Assembly: GCA_963740085.1 (NCBI GenBank)
Contig: CAVUCU010000003.1
Span: 107,680-171,679, forward strand
Length of the DNA: 64,000 nt
Reading direction: 5' to 3'
Source: Nitrospirota bacterium
GTDB taxonomy: Bacteria > Nitrospirota > UBA9217
The position numbers were made by a program, and so were the translations under genes. The notes under the pieces are model-generated. The model had not been told where the DNA came from. It searched no databases and saw only the letters and a program-made list of their open reading frames with translations. Positions 13,441 to 26,958 of the stretch are shown here, one piece after another. Position 1 is the first letter of the stretch, and each line of letters begins with the position of its first letter.

Positions 13441-15261
13441 TTACATCTCCACCCTGGTCACCACGCCGTGGAGCTTGTTGTACGGGAGTTTGTAGAATTG
13501 GACGATGTTCGGGGTAAGACGCTTGATGATCGCGAAAAGCTGCCAGATGACATTGCTCGGCAGGATGTCCTCGACGCCGTAAAAGATCGTCTTCTCGTGG
13601 ATCCCCGCCTCGCGCAGGATCTCCTCGACATCAGGTACCTCCATGTAGCCGGTCTGTATCTCGAAGGACCGGAGCCCGGGGGCCAGGCTTTCCTTGAAGA
13701 ACCCCGTGGTGCCGAAGGGGTCCTCACGCTTGACGATGGAGATTATGATATTGTCCTCATAAATGATGTTGTTCTTGAATATGGTATGCACGACGTAGGG
13801 GGGGACCTCCTTCGCGTCCCTCGCGAAAAAGAGCGCGGTCCCCTTGATCCTGCTCATGGTCTGATAGATCTGCGTGTAGCTCGGCAGGAAGACGTCGATC
13901 GGCAGCGGCTGGAGCACATTGTAGAGCTTCCGCTGGCCCCTGCGGTAGACCATGATGATCAGGAACGGTATTGCAGCGATGATGATCGACCAGTATCCGC
14001 CATGGGGGATCTTATAGGTGTTGGAAATGAAATATGTCAGGCAGACGAAGGTCACGACCACCGAGAGCGCCGCGTGTCCGAACCTTCTCTTGAGATAGAA
14101 GATCCAGGTCATGAAGATGCCGGTAAGGGTCATGGTGCCGGTGACCGCAAGGCCGTAGGCGGCCGCCAGCCTGCTGGACTCCCGGAACTCCATGATGATA
14201 AAAAGCACCGAGAAAAGCAGGAACCAGTTCACAAAACCGATATAGATCTGGGAATGACGCTCCTCGGACGTGTAGTCCACCTTGAACATGGGCATGATGC
14301 GTGTGGTGATGCCCTGGTAAACGATCGAGAACATGCCGCTTATCATGGCCTGAGACGCGATGACCGTGGCAATGATCGAGAGAAGCAGGAACGGGATGTA
14401 GAGGAAGTGCGCCTGATGATTCACCATCTCGAACAGCACGTTCCTGGCCTCGGGATGCCCGATGAGGAACGCCCCCTGACCGATATAGTTGAGTACCAGG
14501 GCGAAGAACACAAAATACCAGGCCCGCACGATCGGCTCGCGGCCCAGATGCCCCATGTCAGCGTAGAGAGCCTCGCCGCCCGTGGCGCACAGAATGACCT
14601 CGGAGAGTACGAAGAACCCGGCGATCCCGTGTTGGGCCATGAACTTGAAGGCATAGTAGGGATTCACCGCCTTGACCACCGAAGGCATAGTAAAGATCGA
14701 AGCAATGCCGGACAGCGTCAGGGCTGCAAACCACAGAATCATGAGCGGCCCGAAGGCCCCGGCGACCCGCTCGGTCCCCTTCTTCTGGAACGAGAAGAGC
14801 AGAATGGCGATGGCGCCGGCGATGATGACGAGGGAGGTCTGGGCCGTTCCCTCAAACCCCTTGATCAGAAGCATGCCCTCCACGGCGCTCAGGATGCTGA
14901 TGGCCGGCGTGATCACGCCATCGCCGATGATGAGCGAAATGCCAATGAACGAAAGCAGGGTGACGACCGCGGCCTGCCTGCCCGATTTGAGAAGCGGGAC
15001 CAGCAGTTCCCTGAGCACGATGGTACCGCCTTCGCCGCGTTTGCCGAGGCTCATGGCCAGCCAGGCGTATTCCACGGTCACCAGGATGACGAGCGTCCAG
15101 ACAATGAGGGACAGGACGCCTATCACGTTGTCCTCGGTCCGCACGATCGTCGGCAAGAGAAAAATGACCGTAAGCGTGTAGATCGGGCTCGTGCCGATAT
15201 CGCCGAACACGAGTCCGAGAGACTTTATGATTCCTTTGGCTGGGGACACTTTGTCAGGCAT
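13441..15261 (-). CDS. kup: KUP/HAK/KT-family potassium uptake transporter
   Basis: 606 aa. GLVFGDIGTSPIYTL is at the N-terminus, followed by about 12 TM segments and a cytoplasmic C-terminal domain. Confidence 0.9.
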   Translation of the reverse strand: MPDKVSPAKGIIKSLGLVFGDIGTSPIYTLTVIFLLPTIVRTEDNVIGVLSLIVWTLVILVTVEYAWLAMSLGKRGEGGTIVLRELLVPLLKSGRQAAVVTLLSFIGISLIIGDGVITPAISILSAVEGMLLIKGFEGTAQTSLVIIAGAIAILLFSFQKKGTERVAGAFGPLMILWFAALTLSGIASIFTMPSVVKAVNPYYAFKFMAQHGIAGFFVLSEVILCATGGEALYADMGHLGREPIVRAWYFVFFALVLNYIGQGAFLIGHPEARNVLFEMVNHQAHFLYIPFLLLSIIATVIASQAMISGMFSIVYQGITTRIMPMFKVDYTSEERHSQIYIGFVNWFLLFSVLFIIMEFRESSRLAAAYGLAVTGTMTLTGIFMTWIFYLKRRFGHAALSVVVTFVCLTYFISNTYKIPHGGYWSIIIAAIPFLIIMVYRRGQRKLYNVLQPLPIDVFLPSYTQIYQTMSRIKGTALFFARDAKEVPPYVVHTIFKNNIIYEDNIIISIVKREDPFGTTGFFKESLAPGLRSFEIQTGYMEVPDVEEILREAGIHEKTIFYGVEDILPSNVIWQLFAIIKRLTPNIVQFYKLPYNKLHGVVTRVEM

Positions 15262-15541
15262 ACGTAAGATGAGGTTTAGTAATCACGCGGCAGTGCAGAG
15301 TTACTGCGGGAAAATCATAATACAGTTCATGTAAAAAAGCAAGGTGAATAAAAAGAACCAGTGACCGCAATTGATTGTTGTTTTGTAAAAAAAGGTTCCA
15401 GATAAAATCCTCGGAAATGACAATAATGATAAGCGAACGTGTAACCTCCCTGAACGATCCTGCCGGGATATGGCGCTCTTCCTGCAGGAGCTACTTGGAC
15501 CAAGGGGATGCACCCACAAAGAAAATATCTGCTCAAGAGGC

Positions 15542-18133
15542 CTATTGATTTTTCTCATTGTTTGCCCCCGGGTTCCCGGAGGCCTGATCCTCATATCTTC
15601 CGTCCAAAAAGTTCCTTGCATAGCGTTTTACCGACTGGTCGTCCTGAAGCACGGCATCCAGCTGCCGGGTAAAGGAGATCAGTCTGCCAATCTGATCGAG
15701 AATACTTTCCGCCTCGCTCCTGACGATGTTCGCGAGCCGTGCAACGATCAAATCGCCTTTTGTCTTGCTATTGAAACCGTACTCGCCGAGGATCTCAGCG
15801 ATGAGCTGCAGCCTCCTCGAACGCTTGGTTATGTCGGTGGCGCCCCCGGTGAACCGGAAATAGATATGATTGTTGCGAGTGTTCTCGCTGCAAAAACAGT
15901 CCAGGATGATGAAATGATAGCCGAACTTCAGGCTGATGTTCGCGTATTCCCGGGAGATGACGGCCATGTTCGATTCCACGCGGCTGCCGCCGTCGGACAT
16001 AATGTCAGGCATGCGCAGCATGCTCGACATAAAGTCATTGACCTTCAGCGGGACTGCATCGGAGCGCCAGATGCCGGGGCGGGTCATGCCGCTGATCAGC
16101 GCCCGAAGCGGCAATGAGGTGACCTGCCCGGCTGTGATGTTGCCCGTGTGCACGGAATTATCCAAGCCCCCGCCGATATCGATGACCATGATCCCGGCGG
16201 GGATCGTCAGGTCTAATTTTACGGCACTGGCCTTCACGCCGAACTGCGCGGTCTCGATCAGCTCGGCAACCGATTTCTCATGGATAAAGCGCAGGATATC
16301 ATGCATGGTCTTGCATGCCTGTGGTGTAAACTCATCCCGCAAAGGATCGACAAGGTTCAGTGGAGCGATGTAGCGCAGGAGATACCTTTTTTTGCGGAAC
16401 TCCGAAAGTTCGTCCATCTTTGCGGAGTTGTTTCGCGCGTGCTCCACGACCTGCCTGACCAGCCCCTGGTAAATGGTCGCCCCTTCGTTCTCCACCTGAA
16501 CGGTGATCTCCTGGCCGTGTGCAAGCAGCTGCGTTGCGTTGCCCGCATTCACGACCGCAGGTATCCTGAACTCCCTGCACAGGGCCGCCATATGGCTCGT
16601 CGGCGCTCCCGTGTCGGTGATGATCGCGGATACGTCGGTCATCACGCGGACAAAATGGGAAGAATCGTGACGCGCAACAAGGATGGCGCCCTTTGGAATG
16701 GAATCAAGCTCGTTGAGGTTCTTAAGAACGAACACCCTGCCGGCCGCCACGCCGTTCTGGACGGCGAGGCCGCTGTTCTTCACGAGAACCTGTGCATCAG
16801 GCGCGTGTGGTTCTGCGACATCCGTGTGATTATCATCGCCTGAGAGCCGGAGCGGCCGGGCCTGGAGGATGAACGCCCGCCCCTGCCTGTCGAATGCCCA
16901 CTCGATGTCCTGGGGCCTGTGGAAGTGCTTTTCGATCAGCAGCGCCAGTCGGGCGAGCTCGGCGACCTGTCCGGGATCAAGGCTCGGGCGCATTCTTTTT
17001 TCATGCGGCGTTTCCATGGTCGTCACGCCACCCTGCTCACTTCCGATGACCATCGAATCCTTCGTGCCGATCCTCGTCTCGATGATCTCCCGCTCGCCGC
17101 TCTTGTTCACCAGATAAAGATCGGCATCGGTCTGGCCTTCCACGACGGAGGTGCCGAGTCCCCACGTGGCATTGATGATGAGCATGTCCCGGTTTCTCTG
17201 CTGATCGATCGAATACAGCACCCCGCTTGTCGCGGCTTCCACCATCACCACGCACCCGACGGCCATCTTCATGTCCCTCGGATCATACCCCAGCCTCTTC
17301 TGATAGATCGATGACGTTTCGGAGAAAAGGCTTGCGAGCACTATCCGGTACGCCTTCTCAACTGCCGCGGTTTCGAGCGGTACGTTCAGAACGGTTTCGA
17401 ATTGTCCGGCAAACGAAAACTCCCCGTCCTCCTCCCCCGCGCTGCTCCGCACGGCGAGGGAACACTTTCCCCTGCACCGTGATCGTATCTCGTTGACGGC
17501 CTTGTCGATTTCACGGTGAAGGTCTGGCGGCATCTCTCCTTGCAGAATACGCGCATGCACGTCGTGCAGGGGCACCCCCGGAACCGGGGCAGCGTCCCGC
17601 GGAAGCTGTCGCTTTTCAAAGATCCGATTATGCCCCATGTAGGCATCGAAGGCCCGGGTCGTCACCGCAAAGGCATCGGGCACGTTCAGCTTCAAGGCGT
17701 TCTTGACCTCCGCGAGGTTGGAGTTCTTTCCGCCGATGTCCCGCACCATATCGCCCGTTACCTGCTCATAGAAGACGACGAGATCCTTTGCCCCGATGAC
17801 GGTTTCGTCGATGACATGCCTGATCCCCTCGTCTATTTCCCGGAACTTCTCACGAAGCTGCGGATACCGTTTGTGGGTAAGTACGTCGAAATCGCGGAGG
17901 GAGTCTCCCACGGCAACGTGAAGGTCGGCATAGGATCTTCTGACATACTGAATGTCGAACAGATAGTCCCCGCCAAGGGTATCACCCATGTCCGTAATGA
18001 TCTCGAGTGCCTTGTTGTTATCGTCGAGGACCTGGCGGAATCGGGAGAACAGCAGCTCGAACGACTCCCGATCGCTTCGAACGCCCCGGAGGGTCCGGTA
18101 CAGTGAATTCAGTTTTCCGGTGAAGTTTGTCAT
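15542..18133 (-). CDS. PEP/pyruvate-binding (PPDK_N) plus swivelling phospho-histidine domain protein, dikinase-like, with unassigned ~300-aa C-terminus
   Basis: 863 aa. GGKNSNLAEV starts the ATP-grasp/PPDK_N region. GAPTSHMAALCREFRIPAVV is the mobile His domain. I did not recognise a canonical PEP-utilising TIM barrel in the C-terminus. Confidence 0.7.
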   Translation of the reverse strand: MTNFTGKLNSLYRTLRGVRSDRESFELLFSRFRQVLDDNNKALEIITDMGDTLGGDYLFDIQYVRRSYADLHVAVGDSLRDFDVLTHKRYPQLREKFREIDEGIRHVIDETVIGAKDLVVFYEQVTGDMVRDIGGKNSNLAEVKNALKLNVPDAFAVTTRAFDAYMGHNRIFEKRQLPRDAAPVPGVPLHDVHARILQGEMPPDLHREIDKAVNEIRSRCRGKCSLAVRSSAGEEDGEFSFAGQFETVLNVPLETAAVEKAYRIVLASLFSETSSIYQKRLGYDPRDMKMAVGCVVMVEAATSGVLYSIDQQRNRDMLIINATWGLGTSVVEGQTDADLYLVNKSGEREIIETRIGTKDSMVIGSEQGGVTTMETPHEKRMRPSLDPGQVAELARLALLIEKHFHRPQDIEWAFDRQGRAFILQARPLRLSGDDNHTDVAEPHAPDAQVLVKNSGLAVQNGVAAGRVFVLKNLNELDSIPKGAILVARHDSSHFVRVMTDVSAIITDTGAPTSHMAALCREFRIPAVVNAGNATQLLAHGQEITVQVENEGATIYQGLVRQVVEHARNNSAKMDELSEFRKKRYLLRYIAPLNLVDPLRDEFTPQACKTMHDILRFIHEKSVAELIETAQFGVKASAVKLDLTIPAGIMVIDIGGGLDNSVHTGNITAGQVTSLPLRALISGMTRPGIWRSDAVPLKVNDFMSSMLRMPDIMSDGGSRVESNMAVISREYANISLKFGYHFIILDCFCSENTRNNHIYFRFTGGATDITKRSRRLQLIAEILGEYGFNSKTKGDLIVARLANIVRSEAESILDQIGRLISFTRQLDAVLQDDQSVKRYARNFLDGRYEDQASGNPGANNEKNQ

Positions 18134-18138
18134 GGCCT

Positions 18139-18513
18139 TTACGGCTGTTTTTCCAGCGCCCGTTTGATAGACGCCTTCAATTCCTTTATCTTGACAGGTT
18201 TCGGGAAAAAGTCATGCACGTCCCTTCGGAGCGCCTCTATGGCCGCATCGAGGTTTGCGAAGGCCGTGATCATGATGACCTGGGTCGCGGGATAGAAGTC
18301 TTTCACGGTTTTCAGCACCTCCATCCCGTCGATTCCCTTCATCTTGTAATCCGTCACGACAACGTCAAATTTTTCTTCCTGCAGCCGCTTCAACGCCGGT
18401 TCGGCGTTCAGAAAGGTTTCAACAGCATAGCCTTCCTGTTCAAGCGACAGTTTCGCCATGTCGCCTACGATTTTTTCATCGTCAATGACCATGATTCTGT
18501 AATTATTACTCAT
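18139..18513 (-). CDS. Single-domain response regulator (CheY-like receiver)
   Basis: 124 aa. IMVIDDE, VVVTDYKMKGIDG, MITAF and PKP are the canonical REC residues. It overlaps the kinase gene by 8 nt. Confidence 0.85.
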   Translation of the reverse strand: MSNNYRIMVIDDEKIVGDMAKLSLEQEGYAVETFLNAEPALKRLQEEKFDVVVTDYKMKGIDGMEVLKTVKDFYPATQVIMITAFANLDAAIEALRRDVHDFFPKPVKIKELKASIKRALEKQP

Positions 18514-19918
18514 TGTTCTTCTCCTCTATTTTATAAGCGGGGAGCTTGATGGTAAAGGTGGTGCCCACGCCGACCTTGCTCTCGACCCTGATCTCGCCCT
18601 TATGATTTTTTATGATGCCATAACTGACTGACAGGCCCAGGCCCGTCCCCCCTTCTCCCTTGGTGCTGAAAAAAGGATCGAAAATATGGGGGAGAAATTC
18701 GGGTGCTATGCCCTTGCCCGTGTCCGCGACACCTATCTCAATGGAATTTCCGCTCTTTCCCGGCCTCGTGGTAAGCACGAGCCTGCCGCCGGCGGTCATG
18801 GACTGAACCGCATTGGTGATCAGGTTCACCAGGACCTGCTGAATCTGGCTTTCATCCACGAACACCGGGGGCAGACCGTCGGCAAAATGGAGCGAGGTCT
18901 CAATGTTCGACACGTCGATCATATTCTGCACAAGGGTGAGCGTCTTCTGTATCACCGCGTTGATGTCCGCCTTGTTCGGGTTCGCATCCTTGGGCTTTGA
19001 AAAATCAAGCAGGTTCTTCACGATCTTCCGTATCCGCTCCGTCTCAGCATCAACCTTAGTCATGAACTCGATCCGGTCACGCTCGCCGAGCTTTGGATAC
19101 AACTCTGCGTAGGTCTGTGCGATCATCGATATATTGTTGAGCGGGTTGGTGATTTCATGGGCCACGCCCGCGGTCAGAATGCCGAGCGAGGCGAGCTTCT
19201 TGGACTGGATGATTTCCTCCTCGCGGTGCGCCAGCTCCTCGGACATCGAGTTCACCGCATTGATGAGCGAGCCAAGCTCGTCTTCATACACTGCTCCCTC
19301 AATCTTGTTGAAATTCCCATGGGAGATCGATTTCGCAAGCTTTTCGATCTCCCGAAGGGAACGCACGATCTTCTGGGAGATGAAATGGCCGATCAGGAGT
19401 GCCGAAACGAGTATCGCCCAGAACAGGAGGATGAGTATCCGCTTCGAACTCAGGATGATGTCGTTCACCCGTTTCCGTTCAAGGTGGGTGATCGAATCGG
19501 AAAATTCCTTCAGTTTTTTCCCTTCGGCCCTGATCCGGACTTCCATCTGCGGATCTCCCGGGGTGCCTCTCGCCGCCAGGTCAACAGTGGCAGAATAGGC
19601 CTTCAGACGCGACTCCAGCGTATCCAGGTCGGTATTGCCGATCGCCCGGATGATGTCCTCGCGCACTTCTCCGATAGTATCCATGGTTTTCGTGATACTC
19701 TCGCGTATCGCCGGGAGCGCCTTGTTGTCCTTGTAAAGAAAATAGTTTTTCTCCGAAAGCCTCATTTCCAAGAAAGACGCATTGAGGTCATCGGCGATCT
19801 CCACGAACCGGAGCTTCGTGAGAACAAGGCTCATGTTCTGAAAGGCGAAGAAACCGATCAGGATGATGAATGCCCCGTTGATGACATTGGAAACGATGAG
19901 TTTGTTTTCTATCTTCAT
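18506..19918 (-). CDS. Sensor histidine kinase (2 TM, HAMP, HisKA, HATPase_c)
   Basis: 470 aa. H-box GVAHEITNPLNNI, N-box LVNLITNAVQ, G-boxes DTGKGI and GTGLGLS. Confidence 0.85.
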   Translation of the reverse strand: MKIENKLIVSNVINGAFIILIGFFAFQNMSLVLTKLRFVEIADDLNASFLEMRLSEKNYFLYKDNKALPAIRESITKTMDTIGEVREDIIRAIGNTDLDTLESRLKAYSATVDLAARGTPGDPQMEVRIRAEGKKLKEFSDSITHLERKRVNDIILSSKRILILLFWAILVSALLIGHFISQKIVRSLREIEKLAKSISHGNFNKIEGAVYEDELGSLINAVNSMSEELAHREEEIIQSKKLASLGILTAGVAHEITNPLNNISMIAQTYAELYPKLGERDRIEFMTKVDAETERIRKIVKNLLDFSKPKDANPNKADINAVIQKTLTLVQNMIDVSNIETSLHFADGLPPVFVDESQIQQVLVNLITNAVQSMTAGGRLVLTTRPGKSGNSIEIGVADTGKGIAPEFLPHIFDPFFSTKGEGGTGLGLSVSYGIIKNHKGEIRVESKVGVGTTFTIKLPAYKIEEKNNE

Positions 19919-19936
19919 GACAATGATCCGGCCGTA

Positions 19937-21166
19937 TTACATCGGCACGGGACACCGCGGGATCTCCGCCTGCTCCTTTCTGACCGGCAAATACCACAGG
20001 AGGCCGTCCACGGCCATGAACACCCCCGCCGCGATAAGCAGTGAATCGAAGACCGTCAGAAAACTGAACCCGAAATAATGCATTAGCCCGAACCCGACCG
20101 TGGTAAACGAAACACCGGTACGAATAAATGCCAGTCCTGTCCTCGCTCGCGCATAGATCGTCCGGTAGCAGGCGGCCACGGTCCGCTGGGCCGCGAGCAC
20201 ATTACGCTCGCGCGCCAGATGCGTGCGTTCCCTGCTGGCCGGCGAAGGAAAGAGGATAGTGCAGTGACCGCCGAGACAATCGCCAAGCCGGGCGAGCATG
20301 GTCCCCTTCGTCGGTGATGCGACCACGCACTGATCGAGATAATGGTAGTTATCAAGGAACTGGAGCGTCGCCGCGGTCACCTCGATAAGCGTCTGGTGCC
20401 CGGGCTTTTTTATCCTGGTTCTCCTTACGTTTAAATACCCTGTCAGACCGAAAACGCCCAGCGAGATGCCGGCCGCGATCATCAACCAGTATACGGGCGT
20501 CATCGCGCCGGCAGCATGAGTTCGCATCAGTACGTCTGACAACGCGATAAGACCCAGCCCCCATCTGAGGATGGCAAGTTCGGTGCGGCCCTTTGCCAGG
20601 TCATTGCGGTAGCAGGCCAGCCGCGTTCTCCAGTGAGCCATGGTGTTTCGCCAGAAGGCGAGGCCGGTCCTCTCCGTCCCGATCAGCAATCCGGGTTTTG
20701 CGTGCAGGTAGTCCTGTATGAACCACTGGAGGTCCTCTTCAAGCGCCACCCAGAACTCATACTGTTCGGCCTTGATGGCTTTTCTGACCTCGTCATACAC
20801 ACGCTGATCCTGCGGATCATGCGCTGCGATAATGACGGTTTTCCCGTCATGAATGATCGGGAACCACAGACTGAGGGACAGCCATTCGCCGTCGAGTCCT
20901 GTGAGACATTCGGGGGGTATGGGCATCCTCTCGTCATATTCCACGAAGGGGCACTTGCAGTATTCGGACAAAGCGGCCAGAAGCGTGCTCTTTGGTACGC
21001 CGTACTCGCGAATGAGAATCCCCTCGATGTCGATCCCCCGGGCAACGGCAGCCTGTTCGGCTTGACGCAGCTCATCGTTCGTCAGCACTCCCCAATCCAT
21101 CAGAATGAGAAACCGCCCGGACTGCCGTCCTGATTTCACATCGTTTTGAGTTGTTTTAGAGGTCAT
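19937..21166 (-). CDS. T2SSE_N (MshEN-like) domain protein fused to two DUF202-type membrane repeats
   Basis: The track ORF is 19937..21304. I set the start at ATG 21166 (MTSKTTQND), which overlaps the upstream stop by 11 nt. The N-domain GIDIEGILIREYGVPKSTLLAALSEYCKCPFVEYDE is GspE-N/MshEN-like. The DUF202 motifs are ERTGLAFWRNTMAHWRTRLA and ERNVLAAQRTVAACYRTIYARARTGLAFIRTG. Confidence 0.6.
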   Translation of the reverse strand: MTSKTTQNDVKSGRQSGRFLILMDWGVLTNDELRQAEQAAVARGIDIEGILIREYGVPKSTLLAALSEYCKCPFVEYDERMPIPPECLTGLDGEWLSLSLWFPIIHDGKTVIIAAHDPQDQRVYDEVRKAIKAEQYEFWVALEEDLQWFIQDYLHAKPGLLIGTERTGLAFWRNTMAHWRTRLACYRNDLAKGRTELAILRWGLGLIALSDVLMRTHAAGAMTPVYWLMIAAGISLGVFGLTGYLNVRRTRIKKPGHQTLIEVTAATLQFLDNYHYLDQCVVASPTKGTMLARLGDCLGGHCTILFPSPASRERTHLARERNVLAAQRTVAACYRTIYARARTGLAFIRTGVSFTTVGFGLMHYFGFSFLTVFDSLLIAAGVFMAVDGLLWYLPVRKEQAEIPRCPVPM

Positions 21167-22802
21167 CGTGACTGAATACCGCTTTTTTCCAGGAACTGGA
21201 CAGCGTCCCGTAATCGGGAAGCGTGATCTCCATTTCCCCGTAACAATACGGAAATTGTTTCCTTGTTTTTTCAGCGGGGAGATGCCAGTAAAGCCCGTCG
21301 GCAATAAACAGCAGTCCTGATAGGATCAGCACGACGTCGAATATGGTCCACCAGACATTTCCTGCGCCGAAATAAACCAGCAGTCCCAGGCCCACCGCGG
21401 AGATGCTCATTCCCGTTCTGATGAACGCCATTCCGGTCCGGGACCGGGCCATGACGGTGCGGAGCCGTGCCATCACGTTCCTCCGCTCCGCAAGGAGGGT
21501 CCGTTCCAGGGCAAGACCCGTCGTGGCCCAGATCCCCGGAGAGCGGAACCCCTTCACCGGGGGAAGAGGCGTGCGAATGGTCTCAAACTTTTCGTGTTTA
21601 AACACAGGAGGAAAAACCGCATCCCAAATACTCGGTTTATCCTCCGAGCTTTTTACGACTTGCGAACTTTTTGCGCCGGCGTGACGACCGGGCAGGTACC
21701 AATAGAATCCCTCTGCCACCATGACCATCCCCAGGATGATAAGCACACCGTCAAGTGCAACCCAGAGACCGTCATGATATTGTCTGAACAATGCAATGCC
21801 GATCCCGATAAAGGCGATCCCGGTGCGCGTGAAGGAAAGCCCCGTACGCGCCCGCGCCATGAGCGTACGATAGCATGCAAGGACCGTCCGTTCTTCGGCA
21901 AGGTCCGTCCTGTCGCTCGCCAGAAACCTCCGGCGCATGACCGGAGAGAGTTTGTTCCATCCGCTCCGGAGCTTTTCGGCCTGAGATGCCTCACCGCTGC
22001 GGCTGAAAACCGGGTCATCCCCGGGGTTGGAAACTTGAAGCACGGTCGATCCGCCCGTCGGCTCCGTCGATGAGCAGTCCAGGTGCTTTTTCCCGACAAT
22101 ACGGGCAGGGAGATACCATTTCACGCCGTCTGCCGTCATGAACACACCCGCGACAAAGAGCAGCACCTCGACGACCATGAGATAGCCCACGCCGAAGATT
22201 CGGAAGAGTACCAGGGCGATCGTGATAAAAGAGAGACCGGTCCGCAGGAAGGCAAGCCCCGTTCTCCCCTTCGCCAACGCCGTCCGAAAATAGGAAAGCA
22301 TCGAACGACGGTCGGCGAGAAAGGTCCTCACCTTGGCAAGCGGGGTCCTGCCCGCAGAGGGGGGGAAGCCGGGGTTCAAATCCTGATTGTGCTCTATGAT
22401 CCTGATAAGGTCTGCGGCAAGGGCAACCCGGAACTCAATGTTCTTGACCTGAAGCGTATGCCTGATATCGTCGATCACCTTCGGGTCGTCGGGATAAGAG
22501 GCGATGACCTCGGCCGAATCCTGCTGGACCGACAAGGGCAGCCACAGAACGTGTTTCAGCCTCTCCATATCCATACGCCGCACGACCTGCTGAGAGACGA
22601 TGACACCCTCGTCGTATTCTACAAAAGGCGCGTTATAATATTCCGAGAGACAAAGGAGTATCTCGTGTTTGGGAATATCCGCGGCTCTCAACAGCTCTTC
22701 GAGCGAAGTCCGTGAGAGTTCCGCTTCCCGTATGAGCCGGTCCAGCTCCTCACCGGAGAGAACGCCCCTTTTTATTAACCGTTTAAATTTTTTGCGTTCC
22801 AT
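21156..22802 (-). CDS. T2SSE_N (MshEN-like) domain protein fused to three DUF202-type membrane repeats
   Basis: 548 aa. The N-domain is SLEELLRAADIPKHEILLCLSEYYNAPFVEYDE. There are three repeats of the ERTxLAxxRTxxARxRTGLxFxRTG type, each followed by TM helices. It is a paralog of the next gene. Confidence 0.6.
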   Translation of the reverse strand: MERKKFKRLIKRGVLSGEELDRLIREAELSRTSLEELLRAADIPKHEILLCLSEYYNAPFVEYDEGVIVSQQVVRRMDMERLKHVLWLPLSVQQDSAEVIASYPDDPKVIDDIRHTLQVKNIEFRVALAADLIRIIEHNQDLNPGFPPSAGRTPLAKVRTFLADRRSMLSYFRTALAKGRTGLAFLRTGLSFITIALVLFRIFGVGYLMVVEVLLFVAGVFMTADGVKWYLPARIVGKKHLDCSSTEPTGGSTVLQVSNPGDDPVFSRSGEASQAEKLRSGWNKLSPVMRRRFLASDRTDLAEERTVLACYRTLMARARTGLSFTRTGIAFIGIGIALFRQYHDGLWVALDGVLIILGMVMVAEGFYWYLPGRHAGAKSSQVVKSSEDKPSIWDAVFPPVFKHEKFETIRTPLPPVKGFRSPGIWATTGLALERTLLAERRNVMARLRTVMARSRTGMAFIRTGMSISAVGLGLLVYFGAGNVWWTIFDVVLILSGLLFIADGLYWHLPAEKTRKQFPYCYGEMEITLPDYGTLSSSWKKAVFSHDDL

Positions 22803-22808
22803 AAGGTT

Positions 22809-22817
22809 ATTATACCA
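22809..22817 (-). promoter_or_regulatory. Extended -10 promoter candidate (TGgTATAAT) 6 nt upstream of ATG 22802; possible leaderless mRNA
   Basis: The minus strand reads gaaTGgTATAATaacctt ATG. There is no SD between the box and the ATG. Confidence 0.35.
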
Positions 22818-22870: not shown

Positions 22871-22904
22871 CAAAAAGAGATGGAGGCGTTTTTGCGCCTC
22901 CATC
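22871..22904 (-). terminator. Rho-independent terminator downstream of tatA
   Basis: 10-bp stem gatggaggcg / cgcctccatc (22879-22888 and 22895-22904). On the minus strand it is followed by ctcttttt. Confidence 0.65.
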
Positions 22905-23033: not shown

Positions 23034-23216
23034 TCAAGCCTTCATTTTTCCCTTCTGATCCTGCTCGACACCTTCGGTTCTGTCCCGCAAACCCTCTTTA
23101 AAACCCCTGATCGCCTTGCCAAGACCCTCGCCAAGCGCGGGAAGCCTGTTCGGCCCGAAGATCACCAGGGCAATGACCAGAATGACCACCATTTCAGGAA
23201 ATCCAAGGTCTCCCAT
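23034..23216 (-). CDS. tatA: Twin-arginine translocase subunit TatA/E
   Basis: 60 aa. MGDLGFPEMVVILVIALVIFGPNRLPALGEGLGKAIRGFKEGL is the canonical TatA TM plus amphipathic helix. An SD ggagaa lies upstream. The N-terminal extension of track ORF 23034..23399 is rejected. Confidence 0.85.
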   Translation of the reverse strand: MGDLGFPEMVVILVIALVIFGPNRLPALGEGLGKAIRGFKEGLRDRTEGVEQDQKGKMKA

Positions 23217-23275
23217 ATGTTCTCCTTTACCATACCGAAATGAACAATAGTACGAATATTCCGCTTCAAGCCTTT

Positions 23276-23698
23276 TTATACGCTCACGACGTACACCGGA
23301 CACGGCGCCAGGTTGATGACCTTTTCCACAATATGATCGCCGAACAGCCGGCTCAGGATGCCCTTCTTCTTTTTCGATCCCATGATGATGAGGTCGCACT
23401 GCTCTTCTTCCGCGACTTCAACGATCCTCTGCGGGACATCGCCATGTTCAAGTCTCGTCTTGATCAGCGCCCCTTCGGTCTTCGCCATCTCGTGAATCTC
23501 CGAAACGGCCTTTGCACCGCCGTCGTCCAGCACGTCATTCAGGTTCTTGATCCCGGTCAGATCAAGATCGCCGTCGAACGGACGGAGCACCTTCACGACC
23601 GTGATCCAGGTCTTTTCATCCTTGGCCATTTTGATCCCTTGTTCCAGGACCTCTTTATGTCCATTCAAAGCAATAAGTACTTTTCTGTACCCTTTCAT
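23276..23698 (-). CDS. Universal stress protein (single Usp domain)
   Basis: Starts at MKGYRKVLIALNG. The C-terminus DLIIMGSKKKKGILSRLFGDHIVEKVINLAPCPVYVV is the Usp ATP-binding type motif. Confidence 0.8.
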   Translation of the reverse strand: MKGYRKVLIALNGHKEVLEQGIKMAKDEKTWITVVKVLRPFDGDLDLTGIKNLNDVLDDGGAKAVSEIHEMAKTEGALIKTRLEHGDVPQRIVEVAEEEQCDLIIMGSKKKKGILSRLFGDHIVEKVINLAPCPVYVVSV

Positions 23699-23703
23699 TT
23701 TAC

Positions 23704-24567
23704 TCACCTCACTATCAGTATCGGACGGGCGGCATGGGCAATGATCCGTTCCGCAGTACTTCCCATGATCGCCTTGTTCATGCCGCTCCAACCGTGGGTC
23801 CCCATGACGATCAGATCGTTCTTGAACTTGTCGGCGAGTTCAACGATCTTGTCGCTCGCATGGCCTTCCTGAACCACTGCCTTGATCTGTACTCCGAGTC
23901 CGGCTGCGATCTTCTTTGCGCCTTCGAGTATTTTCTCAGCCTCCTGGAAAAGGCTTTTCGTGATGGACTCGGTCTTATAAAAATTCACCATCTCTTCATA
24001 GCGGGGGATTACATAGAGGACCGTGATCTCTCCACCATCGAGCTTGGACAGTTCGCAGGCACGGTCCAGCGCCTTTTTGCTGGACTCGGAGCCATCAAAG
24101 GGGACCAGCAGGGAGCTGTATATCCCGGTGCATCTGGTGCATTCCCTGGTCACCACCAGCACATCGCAGGGTGCGTTCATGATGACCTGTGACGCCACAC
24201 TGCCCATCAGCAGCCGTTTGAGCCCCTTCCGTCCGTAGGTGCCGAGGGCGATAAGGTCGGCCTTCTTCCCGTTGGCCATGTCAACGATAACCTCGGGCGG
24301 CTCGCCCTCGCAGATCATCGACTCAACATTGCCGTTCAGACCGAACTCATCGTGAATGTTATTTTTTGCGGCGAGACAGACGGATGTGCCGAACTCGAAC
24401 CGTTTCTCCATCTGTGAGGGCAGAATGGAGAACTCTTCCTGGTCGAAATAGACCGCATGGATAAGGAAGAGCTTCCCCCCGTGCACCTTTACCCATCGGG
24501 AGGCCTCTTTCAGCGCGGCCTTGCTCGATAGCGACTCGTCATAGCCTACAACAATGGAGTTATACAT
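23704..24567 (-). CDS. Tandem universal stress protein (two Usp domains)
   Basis: 287 aa. It contains two copies of the G-x2-G-x9-G(S/T) region: LIALGTYGRKGLKRLLMGSVASQVIMNAPCDVLVV and LIVMGTHGWSGMNKAIMGSTAERIIAHAARPILIV. Confidence 0.85.
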   Translation of the reverse strand: MYNSIVVGYDESLSSKAALKEASRWVKVHGGKLFLIHAVYFDQEEFSILPSQMEKRFEFGTSVCLAAKNNIHDEFGLNGNVESMICEGEPPEVIVDMANGKKADLIALGTYGRKGLKRLLMGSVASQVIMNAPCDVLVVTRECTRCTGIYSSLLVPFDGSESSKKALDRACELSKLDGGEITVLYVIPRYEEMVNFYKTESITKSLFQEAEKILEGAKKIAAGLGVQIKAVVQEGHASDKIVELADKFKNDLIVMGTHGWSGMNKAIMGSTAERIIAHAARPILIVR

Positions 24568-25403
24568 CAGTGAGAACCTCCACCTTTCTTGAACACCATG
24601 CTTACGCCTACGCCTGCGCCAAGCGCGACGCCGATGGCAAGAAATCCGTAGATCGCCGGGCTGTTCTTCGCCATGGTTGATAACGTCTTGACCATGCCGA
24701 CCTGCTCTACGTTGACCTTTGACTGGGCCTGTTCTACGACTTTATTGTCCTTCACGGCATAGACCGAGACAAGGTAATCGCCGGGCTGGGCCTGGTAGGG
24801 CCAATCGGTGAGGATATAGTATTCCTGCTTTCCGTCCGAGTTCATGGTTGTCTCGATTTTTCCGGACGACGTCGTATACACTTTGGACTCTTCCTTGAAC
24901 TTGACGAACTCATCGAACCATTTTGCCTTCTCTTCCTCGTTCGCGACCGGGGTTATATCCACATGTTTTGCAAGCGCGGGATAGCCGATTACATATTTTT
25001 CCCTTTCTTCGCGGCTCAGGATGTCTTCAACCTTCTTCGTGCTGAAGACCTCGTAGAAGTTGGGGGTCTGATCGAACTTCAGTTTGCCCACGTTCATCCA
25101 CAACACCCCCGCGACCTTGCCCTTCTGCTTCAATACCTGATGCCCTTCGGGAGAGGCTATCTTGATGACCAGGTCCACGCCCGGCTCCGATATGCCCCGC
25201 ACGCTCACCGTGCTGCCATGATAGAAGAAGTCGATGGTAATGTGGTCATGGTTTGCCCTGGCCGTAAGCATGGCCGACGCCGGTTTTGCACCGGCAAGCT
25301 GGAACAGGGAAAACACGAGCATGAGAAGTAACGTGCCCAGGAATCTTGTACTGCCGATGAATCTGGCAAAGTGCATTATGAATGAATGGAGTTGAATATG
25401 CAT
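24567..25403 (-). CDS. Membrane-anchored partner protein of the TauE permease (TIGR02186/Alph_Pro_TM-like, unverified)
   Basis: 278 aa with an N-terminal signal/TM segment, a beta-rich middle and a C-terminal TM (AIYGFLAIGVALGAGVGVSMVF). It lies directly downstream of a DUF81 permease, as I recall for TIGR02186 proteins. An alternative start is 25376. Confidence 0.4.
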   Translation of the reverse strand: MHIQLHSFIMHFARFIGSTRFLGTLLLMLVFSLFQLAGAKPASAMLTARANHDHITIDFFYHGSTVSVRGISEPGVDLVIKIASPEGHQVLKQKGKVAGVLWMNVGKLKFDQTPNFYEVFSTKKVEDILSREEREKYVIGYPALAKHVDITPVANEEEKAKWFDEFVKFKEESKVYTTSSGKIETTMNSDGKQEYYILTDWPYQAQPGDYLVSVYAVKDNKVVEQAQSKVNVEQVGMVKTLSTMAKNSPAIYGFLAIGVALGAGVGVSMVFKKGGGSH

Positions 25404-25404
25404 T

Positions 25405-26331
25405 TTAATGTCCTCCTACTTGAGAGAGAAGTAACGACGGGGTCAATGTAACCTCGAAGACGATCTTGACCGTCACCACGAGCACGATCACCGCGAGGAG
25501 GATCTTGAGCTGTTCGGCCTTGAGCTTCCTGCCGAACACGGTGCCGATCTGCGCCCCTACGGTCGAACCCAGGAGCAGGAGCACGGCGAGCAGGAAGTCC
25601 ACGCTGTGATTGGTGTATGCCTGGAGGAACGTGACCTCGATGCACGTGAACAGGATCTGGAACAGGCTCGTACCGACCACCACGTGCATCGGCATCCTGA
25701 GCAGGTACACCATGATCGGCACCATCAGGAACCCGCCGCCCACGCCCATGATCGCGGCAAGAATGCCGACAAACCCGCCCAGCACGATCGGAACGAACAC
25801 GGAATGAGTGATGCCCGACTTCTCGAAGTGTGTCTGAAGCGGCAGGGATTTCAGGAACCTGCCCATCGCGGATTCTTTTTCTTTCTTCACTTCTTCTCCG
25901 GCCACATCCTTTTTCTTCCTCATGCTCTGGAGGCTCTCGATGAACATGTAGACGCCGACGATGCCGAGCATAAGGATATAGGTAATCTTGATCACGAAAT
26001 CGGCATTGCCCATGGCATGGAGGAGTTTGATGACCTGAACGCCGACGATGCCGCCGATAAATCCGCCGACAAGCAGATACAGCCCCATCTTAAAGTCCAC
26101 GTTCCCCACCCTCCAGTGCGCATAGGTGCCGGACGTGGATGCCGCCACGATCTGGTTGGAATCAGTTGCCGCGGCAACCGTCGATGGTATGCCGAACATG
26201 ATGAGAAGCGGCGTCAAGAGAAATCCGCCGCCTACGCCGAAGAGACCGGAAAGCAGTCCCACGGCCAGCCCGAGCCCAACGGGGATCAGGATATTGATGC
26301 TGGTCAATGCTACAGGTAGATACAGGTACAT
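25405..26331 (-). CDS. TauE/SafE (DUF81) family anion permease
   Basis: 308 aa with two halves of Gly-rich TM helices (GLFGVGGGFLLTPLL and IMGVGGGFLMVPIMVY) separated by a charged loop. Confidence 0.8.
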   Translation of the reverse strand: MYLYLPVALTSINILIPVGLGLAVGLLSGLFGVGGGFLLTPLLIMFGIPSTVAAATDSNQIVAASTSGTYAHWRVGNVDFKMGLYLLVGGFIGGIVGVQVIKLLHAMGNADFVIKITYILMLGIVGVYMFIESLQSMRKKKDVAGEEVKKEKESAMGRFLKSLPLQTHFEKSGITHSVFVPIVLGGFVGILAAIMGVGGGFLMVPIMVYLLRMPMHVVVGTSLFQILFTCIEVTFLQAYTNHSVDFLLAVLLLLGSTVGAQIGTVFGRKLKAEQLKILLAVIVLVVTVKIVFEVTLTPSLLLSQVGGH

Positions 26332-26376
26332 CTCGATAGCTCCTTTTCTTTATTTAAAATTTTTACTGCAAAAACC

Positions 26377-26443
26377 CGCAGAGCCTCTGATTCGGCATGG
26401 AGCAGAGCGCATGAACTCCTGTGCTTTGCTCTCTGCCCTCTGC
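26377..26443. repeat. Intergenic imperfect hairpin of gcagag words (R5)
   Basis: Inner stem gagcagagcgca / tgtgctttgctc (10/12) with loop tgaactcc. The outer arms are gcagagc...ctctgc. Confidence 0.45.
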
Positions 26444-26466
26444 TTTCTACTCTTTGTCCTTCGCTC

Positions 26467-26958
26467 CTACGCCACCGCGCAGGCCTGCCTGGTCATGGTC
26501 ACGATCGGCCGCGACGCTGTCCGCACAAGCCGGCTCAGATCCTTTGAAGTGACGTTCCCTGCCTCGGTAATTGCGGGGCTCAACACGACCTTATCGATAC
26601 CCGCATGTTCCTTGATAAATTTTCTTATGCCTGATATCGCATCCAGACTTGTGGCATGGACATTCGCCTGAATTCCTTCGTTAAGGCATTTTTTCACAAC
26701 AGTGTCTACCTCTTTTTCGTAGATGCCCTTCACGACCTGGGAAGTCATGATCTGTTGCGCCGTATCGTGCTCGCCGGCCTCGGCAAAGCTCACGGCTGTC
26801 ATCATGTTTCCCAACTTATCCATGAGTGAGCTTTGCTTCTGGACGAAAAGGAGCGTGATGTCCTCATACATAGCCTTTGCAAGCTCGATAGCGTACGAAA
26901 CCCCTTCTTCCAAATTTTCATCCCGGAAGGTGACGAACAACAACTGCCTCTTTCCCAT
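26467..26958 (-). CDS. Usp-like (adenine-nucleotide-alpha-hydrolase fold) protein carrying an FAEAGE motif insert
   Basis: 163 aa. QLLFVTFRDENLEEGVSYAIELA...DKVVLSP...RPIVTM is Usp-like. The internal motif is TAVSFAEAGEHDTAQQIM. An SD aggagg lies upstream. Confidence 0.5.
   Translation of the reverse strand: MGKRQLLFVTFRDENLEEGVSYAIELAKAMYEDITLLFVQKQSSLMDKLGNMMTAVSFAEAGEHDTAQQIMTSQVVKGIYEKEVDTVVKKCLNEGIQANVHATSLDAISGIRKFIKEHAGIDKVVLSPAITEAGNVTSKDLSRLVRTASRPIVTMTRQACAVA

Follow-up and report, generated by a model that had tools for sequence, protein, structure and literature searches.

A conserved Nitrospirota gene unit combining a two-component pair and a PpsA-like phosphotransferase with arginine-ladder DUF202 membrane proteins

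Five adjacent minus-strand genes are found in a stretch of 64,000 nucleotides (the window) from a Nitrospirota bacterium (GTDB lineage Bacteria; Nitrospirota; UBA9217), taken from assembly GCA_963740085.1, contig CAVUCU010000003.1, forward-strand positions 107,680 to 171,679. They encode two paralogous membrane proteins that join an MshEN-fold domain to DUF202 hairpins (MD548 and MD410), a membrane sensor histidine kinase (HK), a stand-alone receiver (RR) and an 863-residue enzyme, PpsL, which resembles the phosphoenolpyruvate (PEP) synthase PpsA. By the names that near-identical proteins bear, the window belongs to Nitrospirota of the Thermodesulfovibrionales/Dissulfurispiraceae type. The five genes are kept together in many uncultured Nitrospirota of the sulfate-reducer type, and their order recurs in dozens of species, which is more than chance. 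We rate it at a little better than even that the unit is a conserved signalling and transport module, in which a phosphotransferase controlled by a two-component system is coupled to an anion conduit.

Organization and conservation of the unit

An initial annotation of this stretch, made from the sequence, had described five minus-strand genes with a given order, domain content and spacing, all of which hold by the list of open reading frames (ORFs) and Pfam. The lengths of 548 and 863 residues that it gave for the first and last products also stand, whereas the second membrane protein, put at 410 residues, has 409 when read from the ATG that produces the overlap with its neighbour. From MD548 to PpsL, the genes are spaced by an 11-nt overlap, an 18-nt gap, an 8-nt overlap and a 5-nt gap; no gap or overlap exceeds 18 nt, and this close packing counts in favor of the proposed module. 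A terminator-like hairpin after tatA forms the boundary to an upstream Usp/TauE module, and an extended −10-like element, TG-n-TATAAT, ends 6 nt before the ATG of MD548. The unit therefore resembles a transcript of its own and a leaderless start at MD548 is possible; the sequence suggests co-transcription of all five genes. A look-up of RNA runs listed none for the 7.8-kb stretch and none for the PpsL gene by itself.

Gene order was compared by tblastn of the window proteins against regions taken from relatives, and the full order, beginning with the Usp-like gene uspL upstream and ending with PpsL, was seen in several genera and at least one other family. An alignment scan with MD548, using one genome per GTDB species, gave 258 relatives, and the best 80 loci were analysed. 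The MD410 orthologue directly follows that of MD548 in 79 of these 80 species loci. Of the 47 loci that have at least 8.5 kb of flank, 40 (85%) continue downstream with genes for HK, RR and PpsL on the same strand, and in 27 of these 40 the gap between MD410 and HK is at most 65 nt (mostly 12-65 nt). Co-occurrence was assessed in 151 genomes sampled evenly across the phylum, with the result tables matched by hand; the orthologous PpsL class was present in 19 of the 22 sampled genomes that have an MD548 orthologue, and in most cases the two genes shared a contig and lay no more than about 10 kb apart. The earlier reading of the five genes as one unit is borne out by these counts, which overstate independence because the genomes are related.

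The PpsA-like enzyme and the two-component pair

The Pfam search placed PPDK_N (PF01326, the ATP-grasp part) at residues 132-441 of PpsL (E 1.4e-75) and PEP-utilizers (PF00391, the swivelling phospho-His domain) at residues 479-548, and left residues 1-130 and 556-863 without a domain. Among solved proteins, PpsA of Neisseria (PDB 2ols, E 4e-64) is the best relative, and it was found that H514 of PpsL, in the motif TSHMAALCRE, aligns with the catalytic TCH histidine of that structure, so that Pfam and the alignment agree with the PPDK_N and swivel assignments of the initial annotation. PpsL is thus like PpsA (TIGR01418/NF005057; PDB 2ols, 8a8e) in having an ATP-grasp part followed by a swivelling phospho-His domain, in the same order and with the catalytic histidine aligned. 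However, the alignment covers residues 4-481 of the 794 of 2ols and stops before the barrel; PpsL has no PEP/pyruvate TIM barrel (PF02896) and carries a ~300-residue alpha/beta domain and a ~115-residue helical N-extension. Its scores against the PpsA models of NCBIfam are under the equivalog cut-offs (NF005057, 329.6 against 598 bits; TIGR01418, 327.5 against 739.75 bits), and, as a further difference from PpsA, it is encoded beside a two-component pair and membrane proteins. Rifampin phosphotransferase and PigC-type kinases were also considered and rejected; their order is ATP-grasp, substrate domain and C-terminal swivel His, whereas the swivel of PpsL is central, and their models match only its ATP-grasp part.

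The C-terminal 300 residues had been left unassigned in the initial annotation, and the profile and structure searches returned neither a Pfam domain nor a fold match for them. The AlphaFold model of the domain (pLDDT 84.9, pTM 0.73) is mixed alpha/beta with antiparallel sheets. A Foldseek search of this model against the PDB gave nothing better than E 0.047, and VIA-align against 48,161 chains gave nothing better than Z 6.0. An ordinary PpsA barrel is set aside because none was seen by Pfam, in the 2ols alignment, in the model or in the fold searches; as modelled, with good confidence, the last ~300 residues of PpsL are a fold without a solved relative and not a PEP/pyruvate TIM barrel. With the C-terminal 308 residues as query, 1,147 clusters at 50% identity were found at E <= 1e-3 and 481 at E <= 1e-30, and the databases label this family 'pyruvate, water dikinase'. 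An alignment of 48 sequences of the domain showed invariant His, Asp and Arg positions together with a conserved GG-x-TD...RR-x-RR segment. The search of AFDB clusters returned the same family, a D. vulgaris protein included, along with sub-threshold YbjN-like matches; in one family member, a variant of the domain is fused to a tyrosine-phosphatase-like domain. Relatives of the domain are fused to or adjoin phosphatases, which fits a role in substrate binding. The tail of the domain has a weak likeness, far below significance, to YbjN and to chaperones of type III secretion systems (T3SS).

In a paralogous class of ~1,050-1,090 residues (G003:C185, G012:C4, G015:C12; P0221, P0225, P0254; L125), a concanavalin-A-like lectin domain comes after the same C-terminal domain, and in one contig the gene of a lectin-domain paralogue lies directly after that of a low-molecular-weight phosphatase. 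In two metagenomic contigs (L041 and L123), the genes of PpsL and RR are followed by two more PpsA-like genes, one of which has no recognisable ATP-grasp domain.

HK contains the Pfam domains HAMP, HisKA and HATPase_c. Hydropathy placed its transmembrane segments at residues 7-25 and 161-179, on either side of an extracytoplasmic region of ~135 residues, and the three domains follow in the order given. The nearest NCBIfam models are AtoS and ZraS, with scores under their cut-offs. RR consists of Response_reg only (residues 7-116, E 1.4e-27), its identity across species is 75-96%, and its translation holds the conserved residues D11, D12, D55, T83 and K105. The pair thus has the sequence features of a two-component system: HisKA and HATPase_c are present in the kinase, and the acidic pocket, the threonine and the lysine in the receiver. 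From the overlap of the two genes and their conserved adjacency, we infer phosphotransfer from HK to RR.

The association of PpsL with receivers extends to its distant homologues. A receiver gene lies directly after PpsL in six of the eight distant contexts, TauE and/or Alph_Pro_TM directly before it in five of the eight, and natural PpsL-receiver fusions occur in three cluster representatives (P0143, P0144 and P0160). From these neighbourhoods and fusions it was concluded that PpsL is most deeply associated with a receiver and with membrane proteins of anion transport. The initial annotation had suggested the dikinase-like protein as the output of HK and RR, with which the receiver adjacency and the fusions are in keeping. 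It was incomplete in two respects: the unit belongs to a larger conserved neighbourhood, and outside the lineage, PpsL homologues accompany TauE/TIGR02186 instead of the MshEN-DUF202 pair.

The MshEN-DUF202 membrane pair

Both membrane proteins contain MshEN and DUF202 by Pfam. The DUF202 score (PF02656, cut-off 23.4) is 55.9 bits for MD548, over three stretches, while MD410 reaches 22.7 bits by itself and 28.1 together with its neighbours. A repeat profile resolved three DUF202 units in MD548 and two in MD410, and these five are the only ones of the whole genome. The units are modelled as a helix of 52-55 residues and a return helix of 29-41 residues, with which hydropathy is concordant. Six arginines at positions i, i+7 ... 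i+35 of the first helix are invariant in all five units; in repeat 1 of MD548, the ladder is formed by R152/159/166/173/180/187, with equivalents in repeats 2 and 3. The count of 3+2 repeats was found in 72 of 80 species. An arginine ladder is likewise present in P0394, a DUF202 protein of 259 residues near a distant PpsL cluster (L039:2673-3449 (+)), where the cytoplasmic part has about 20 consecutive x-R-T-x-L-A-x heptads followed by one membrane hairpin.

DUF202 is the membrane domain of the subunits of VTC (PMC7283521). In yeast VTC, five DUF202 domains, contributed by Vtc1 x3, Vtc3 and Vtc4, form a polyphosphate pore that is lined by heptad-spaced basic residues of TM1, the first transmembrane helix (PMC9911596). 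The MD pair shares with VTC the family PF02656, the number of five units and the basic residues at seven-residue spacing in the first helix. It differs in that the units are split 3+2 over two polypeptides, in that the ladder, with six rungs, is much longer and reaches into the cytoplasm, and in having no TTM polymerase or SPX domain. By analogy with VTC, MD548 and MD410 probably form a positively charged channel, and their 3+2 = 5 units are consistent with a pentameric assembly round one pore. Some species (L065, L067, L086 and L091) encode one more MshEN-DUF202 paralogue with three repeats, which brings the units to 3+3+2, and L068 has a disrupted copy; such a set is at odds with a simple pentamer of fixed composition, unless the long subunits substitute for one another.

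The initial annotation had taken the two proteins for putative receptors of a nucleotide second messenger, a reading that has to be withdrawn as unlikely. In the model of MD548 (AF2, pLDDT 80.4), the N-terminal domain superposes on MshE (PDB 5htl; Z 14.6, 138 of 139 residues aligned; Foldseek E 2e-4, probability 1.00) and also on the GSPII domains of PilF, and the pair shares the two-subdomain fold, over ~138 residues, of the MshE and PilF receptors (5htl, 8pdk; PMC5013675). Binding of cyclic di-GMP (c-di-GMP) is described by two tandem 24-residue motifs, RLGxx(L)(V/I)xxG(I/F)(L/V)xxxxLxxxLxxQ (Wang 2016; PMC5013675), for which a strict and a relaxed form were tested, and none of the 121 members of the MshEN-DUF202 family matches either form. 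In the alignment with GSPII-B of PilF, K-K-F and S-L-E stand in place of RLG, and A and Y in place of the glutamines; the Phe and Glu at essential motif-glycine positions are conserved across 32 orthologues. Unlike in the MshE and PilF receptors, both motifs are degenerate in the MD pair (RLG to x-K-F and x-x-E, Q to S/A and Y), and the domain is joined to membrane hairpins and not to a secretion ATPase. In this degeneracy the domains are like the non-binding GSPII-A of PilF, where small deviations from the motif already abolish c-di-GMP binding (PMC12002112). Since both RLG...Q motifs are missing, the MD proteins are unlikely to be receptors of this kind.

Neighbourhood, mechanism and alternatives

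The five genes are part of a larger conserved neighbourhood, with genes for Usp, TauE, TIGR02186, Usp and TatA upstream (Table 1). The order that recurs in relatives is UspL, TauE, Alph_Pro_TM, Usp, (TatA), MD548, MD410, HK, RR and PpsL, and 34 of the 53 species loci with enough flank have TauE and Alph_Pro_TM upstream of the MD pair. Downstream, a gene for a Kup potassium transporter (window 13441-15261) lies 280 nt from PpsL on the same (minus) strand, an adjacency that is kept only inside the genus. No terminator was detected in the 280-nt interval between the PpsL stop codon and kup, nor any Rfam-type RNA element or riboswitch between the unit and kup at E <= 0.1. An ORF of 106 residues (15301-15621, minus) overlaps the 3' end of PpsL by 80 nt; it has no Pfam match, the intergenic space of a close relative is too small for a counterpart, and it is probably spurious. 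In some relatives, MFS transporter genes occur between MD410 and HK or beside the cluster (L023:4151-5707 (+), L022:14908-16632 (+)).

Table 1 Coordinates of the features (positions in the window, except for the last row)
Feature	Position	Strand	Length	Basis or remark
MD548 (MshEN-DUF202)	21156-22802	minus	548 aa	ORF list and translation
MD548 cytoplasmic MshEN-fold domain, residues 1-142	22377-22802	minus
MD548 DUF202 hairpins 1-3	22089-22370, 21669-21932, 21255-21524	minus
MD410 (MshEN-DUF202 paralogue)	19937-21166	minus	409 aa	from ATG giving 11-nt overlap
MD410 MshEN-like domain	about 20696-21103	minus
MD410 DUF202 hairpins 1-2	20405-20689, 19964-20245	minus
HK, membrane sensor histidine kinase	18506-19918	minus	470 aa
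RR, stand-alone receiver (CheY-like)	18139-18513	minus	124 aa
PpsL (PpsL863), PpsA-like phosphotransferase	15542-18133	minus	863 aa
PpsL family-specific helical N-extension	17789-18133	minus	~115 residues
PpsL ATP-grasp PPDK_N	16811-17740	minus		Pfam
PpsL swivel phospho-His domain	16490-16699	minus		H514 codon 16592-16594
PpsL novel C-terminal domain	15545-16468	minus
Extended −10-like element TG-n-TATAAT	22809-22817	minus		read from sequence; consensus match only
Intrinsic-terminator-like hairpin after tatA	22879-22904	minus	10-bp stem and T-run	terminator scan and sequence reading
Associated upstream module	23034-26958	minus		Pfam
Usp-like protein (UspL)	26467-26958	minus		Pfam
TauE/TSUP permease	25405-26331	minus		Pfam
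Alph_Pro_TM/TIGR02186 membrane partner	24567-25403	minus		Pfam
Tandem Usp	23704-24567	minus		Pfam
Single Usp, then TatA		minus		Pfam; TatA is the C-terminal part of ORF 23034-23399
PEP-utilizers_C frame and contig-1 PPDK_N ORF	C3:14204-15070 and C1:13563-14753			whole genome

In the mechanism that we propose, HK would phosphorylate RR, and phospho-RR would bind PpsL and switch it. With H514 as the intermediate carrier, PpsL would pass phosphate from ATP to an acceptor bound by the C-terminal domain, and its activity would control or feed a positively charged conduit made of the 3+2 heterodimer of MD548 and MD410, a pseudo-pentamer resembling the polyphosphate pore of VTC. The conduit would probably act with the neighbouring TauE/TIGR02186 anion permease in a stress response. 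A stress-related and anion-handling role fits, by analogy, with D. vulgaris. There the homologous sigma-54 regulator, which lies beside a Lon-receiver protein, controls Usp proteins together with an anion transporter that is needed under chlorate stress (PMC3333781, PMC10102598); potassium uptake is another of its targets (PMC3333781, PMC4641369, PMC10102598). The DVU3303-3305 system with its DVU3298-3302 regulon is similar in that sigma-54-driven genes for Usp and a TauE-type transporter lie beside a Lon-receiver protein, and in the link to potassium transport, kup being downstream of PpsL here; it differs in that the published descriptions of the regulon make no mention of a PpsA-like enzyme or of MshEN-DUF202 proteins.

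Several points weigh against the proposed module. The distant PpsL homologues are mostly without MshEN-DUF202 neighbours and in one genus the MD pair and PpsL are on different contigs, so no direct physical link between the enzyme and the MD pair is needed. From sequence, a receiver that regulates PpsL cannot be told from one that is its substrate. Four species have 3+3+2 units, and the modelled MD unit has two helices, whereas that of VTC has three. Foldseek, VIA-align and a repeat-profile search of PDB sequences did not retrieve VTC chains, helical hairpins being hard targets and the profile having held a stray full-length row; the relation to VTC therefore rests on Pfam membership and the shared features.

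Part of this evidence would suit two independent, co-regulated neighbours, with the MD pair as a stand-alone channel and HK-RR-PpsL as a separate system whose true partner is the TauE/TIGR02186 permease. Distant PpsL homologues that directly follow TauE and Alph_Pro_TM, with no MshEN-DUF202 genes, and the split between contigs are what this explanation predicts, as are the inserts of 0.4-3 kb, and of about 11 kb in G004, that separate MD410 from HK in some genomes. It is considered unlikely, though deserving of attention, in view of the adjacency across species, the mostly tight spacing and the co-occurrence described above. Moreover, 19 loci keep HK-RR-PpsL after the MD pair although TauE and Alph_Pro_TM were not found upstream, and a DUF202 protein with an arginine ladder occurs near a distant PpsL cluster as well. 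Somewhat less probable again is the idea that PpsL is not the output of RR but its phosphodonor or phosphate sink, a second 'kinase' of ATP-grasp type, in which ATP would charge H514 and the phosphate would pass to the aspartate of an RR docked on the C-terminal domain. His-to-Asp transfer is ordinary chemistry, the receiver adjoins PpsL or is fused directly after the C-terminal domain, and the tail of that domain is weakly like the protein-binding folds of YbjN and T3SS chaperones. On the other hand, a dedicated HK gene already overlaps that of RR, a receiver domain that is fused to an enzyme normally has a regulatory role, the clusters of invariant His, Asp and Arg suit a catalytic or small-ligand site, and the YbjN-like matches are far below significance.

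We give very little credence to a bacterial counterpart of VTC built from unrelated parts, in which the phospho-His of PpsL would make or extend a phosphate-rich polyanion such as polyphosphate, the DUF202 3+2 assembly would pass it through the inner membrane and HK-RR would exert control. Neither PPK1 nor PPK2 was found in this genome, which is 98.5% complete, and the 27 genomes sampled from its family, with or without the cluster, likewise gave no PPK1; being lineage-wide, this absence gives no information for or against a polyphosphate cargo. The least credible explanation is that PpsL is the PEP synthase of the host with a divergent pyruvate-binding domain. The database name would agree with it, and a whole-genome search found no canonical PpsA or PPDK, with PEP-utilizers_C (PF02896) in only one open frame of 653 residues, taken as enzyme I of the phosphotransferase system (PTS) by its size. 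A housekeeping PpsA was nevertheless rejected, as PpsL has no TIM barrel by sequence or fold, scores about 330 bits against the 598-bit cut-off and has a conserved context of signalling and membrane genes and not of gluconeogenesis; in addition, the relative G010 carries PpsL plus a separate PpsA-like match of 809 residues. In the same genome search, an ORF of 1207 residues on contig 1 gave a partial match to PPDK_N and the mobile domain, without a barrel.

The initial annotation did not recognise this combination of genes as a described pathway, and in the literature searched we likewise found no paper that deals with MshEN-DUF202 proteins or with a coupling of PpsA-like enzymes to receivers. 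The PpsL family and the MshEN-DUF202 pair are conserved across many anaerobic, sulfur-cycling bacteria. The former comprises more than 1,000 sequence clusters that are uniformly mis-annotated as PEP synthase, and the latter will probably be mistaken for a c-di-GMP receptor. Identifying the acceptor of PpsL would add a new reaction to the ATP-grasp/swivel-histidine class and define a new type of two-component output. If bacterial DUF202 proteins were shown to form arginine-lined pentameric conduits, this would be the first function for a widespread bacterial membrane family and would help to explain how the eukaryotic polyphosphate channel arose.

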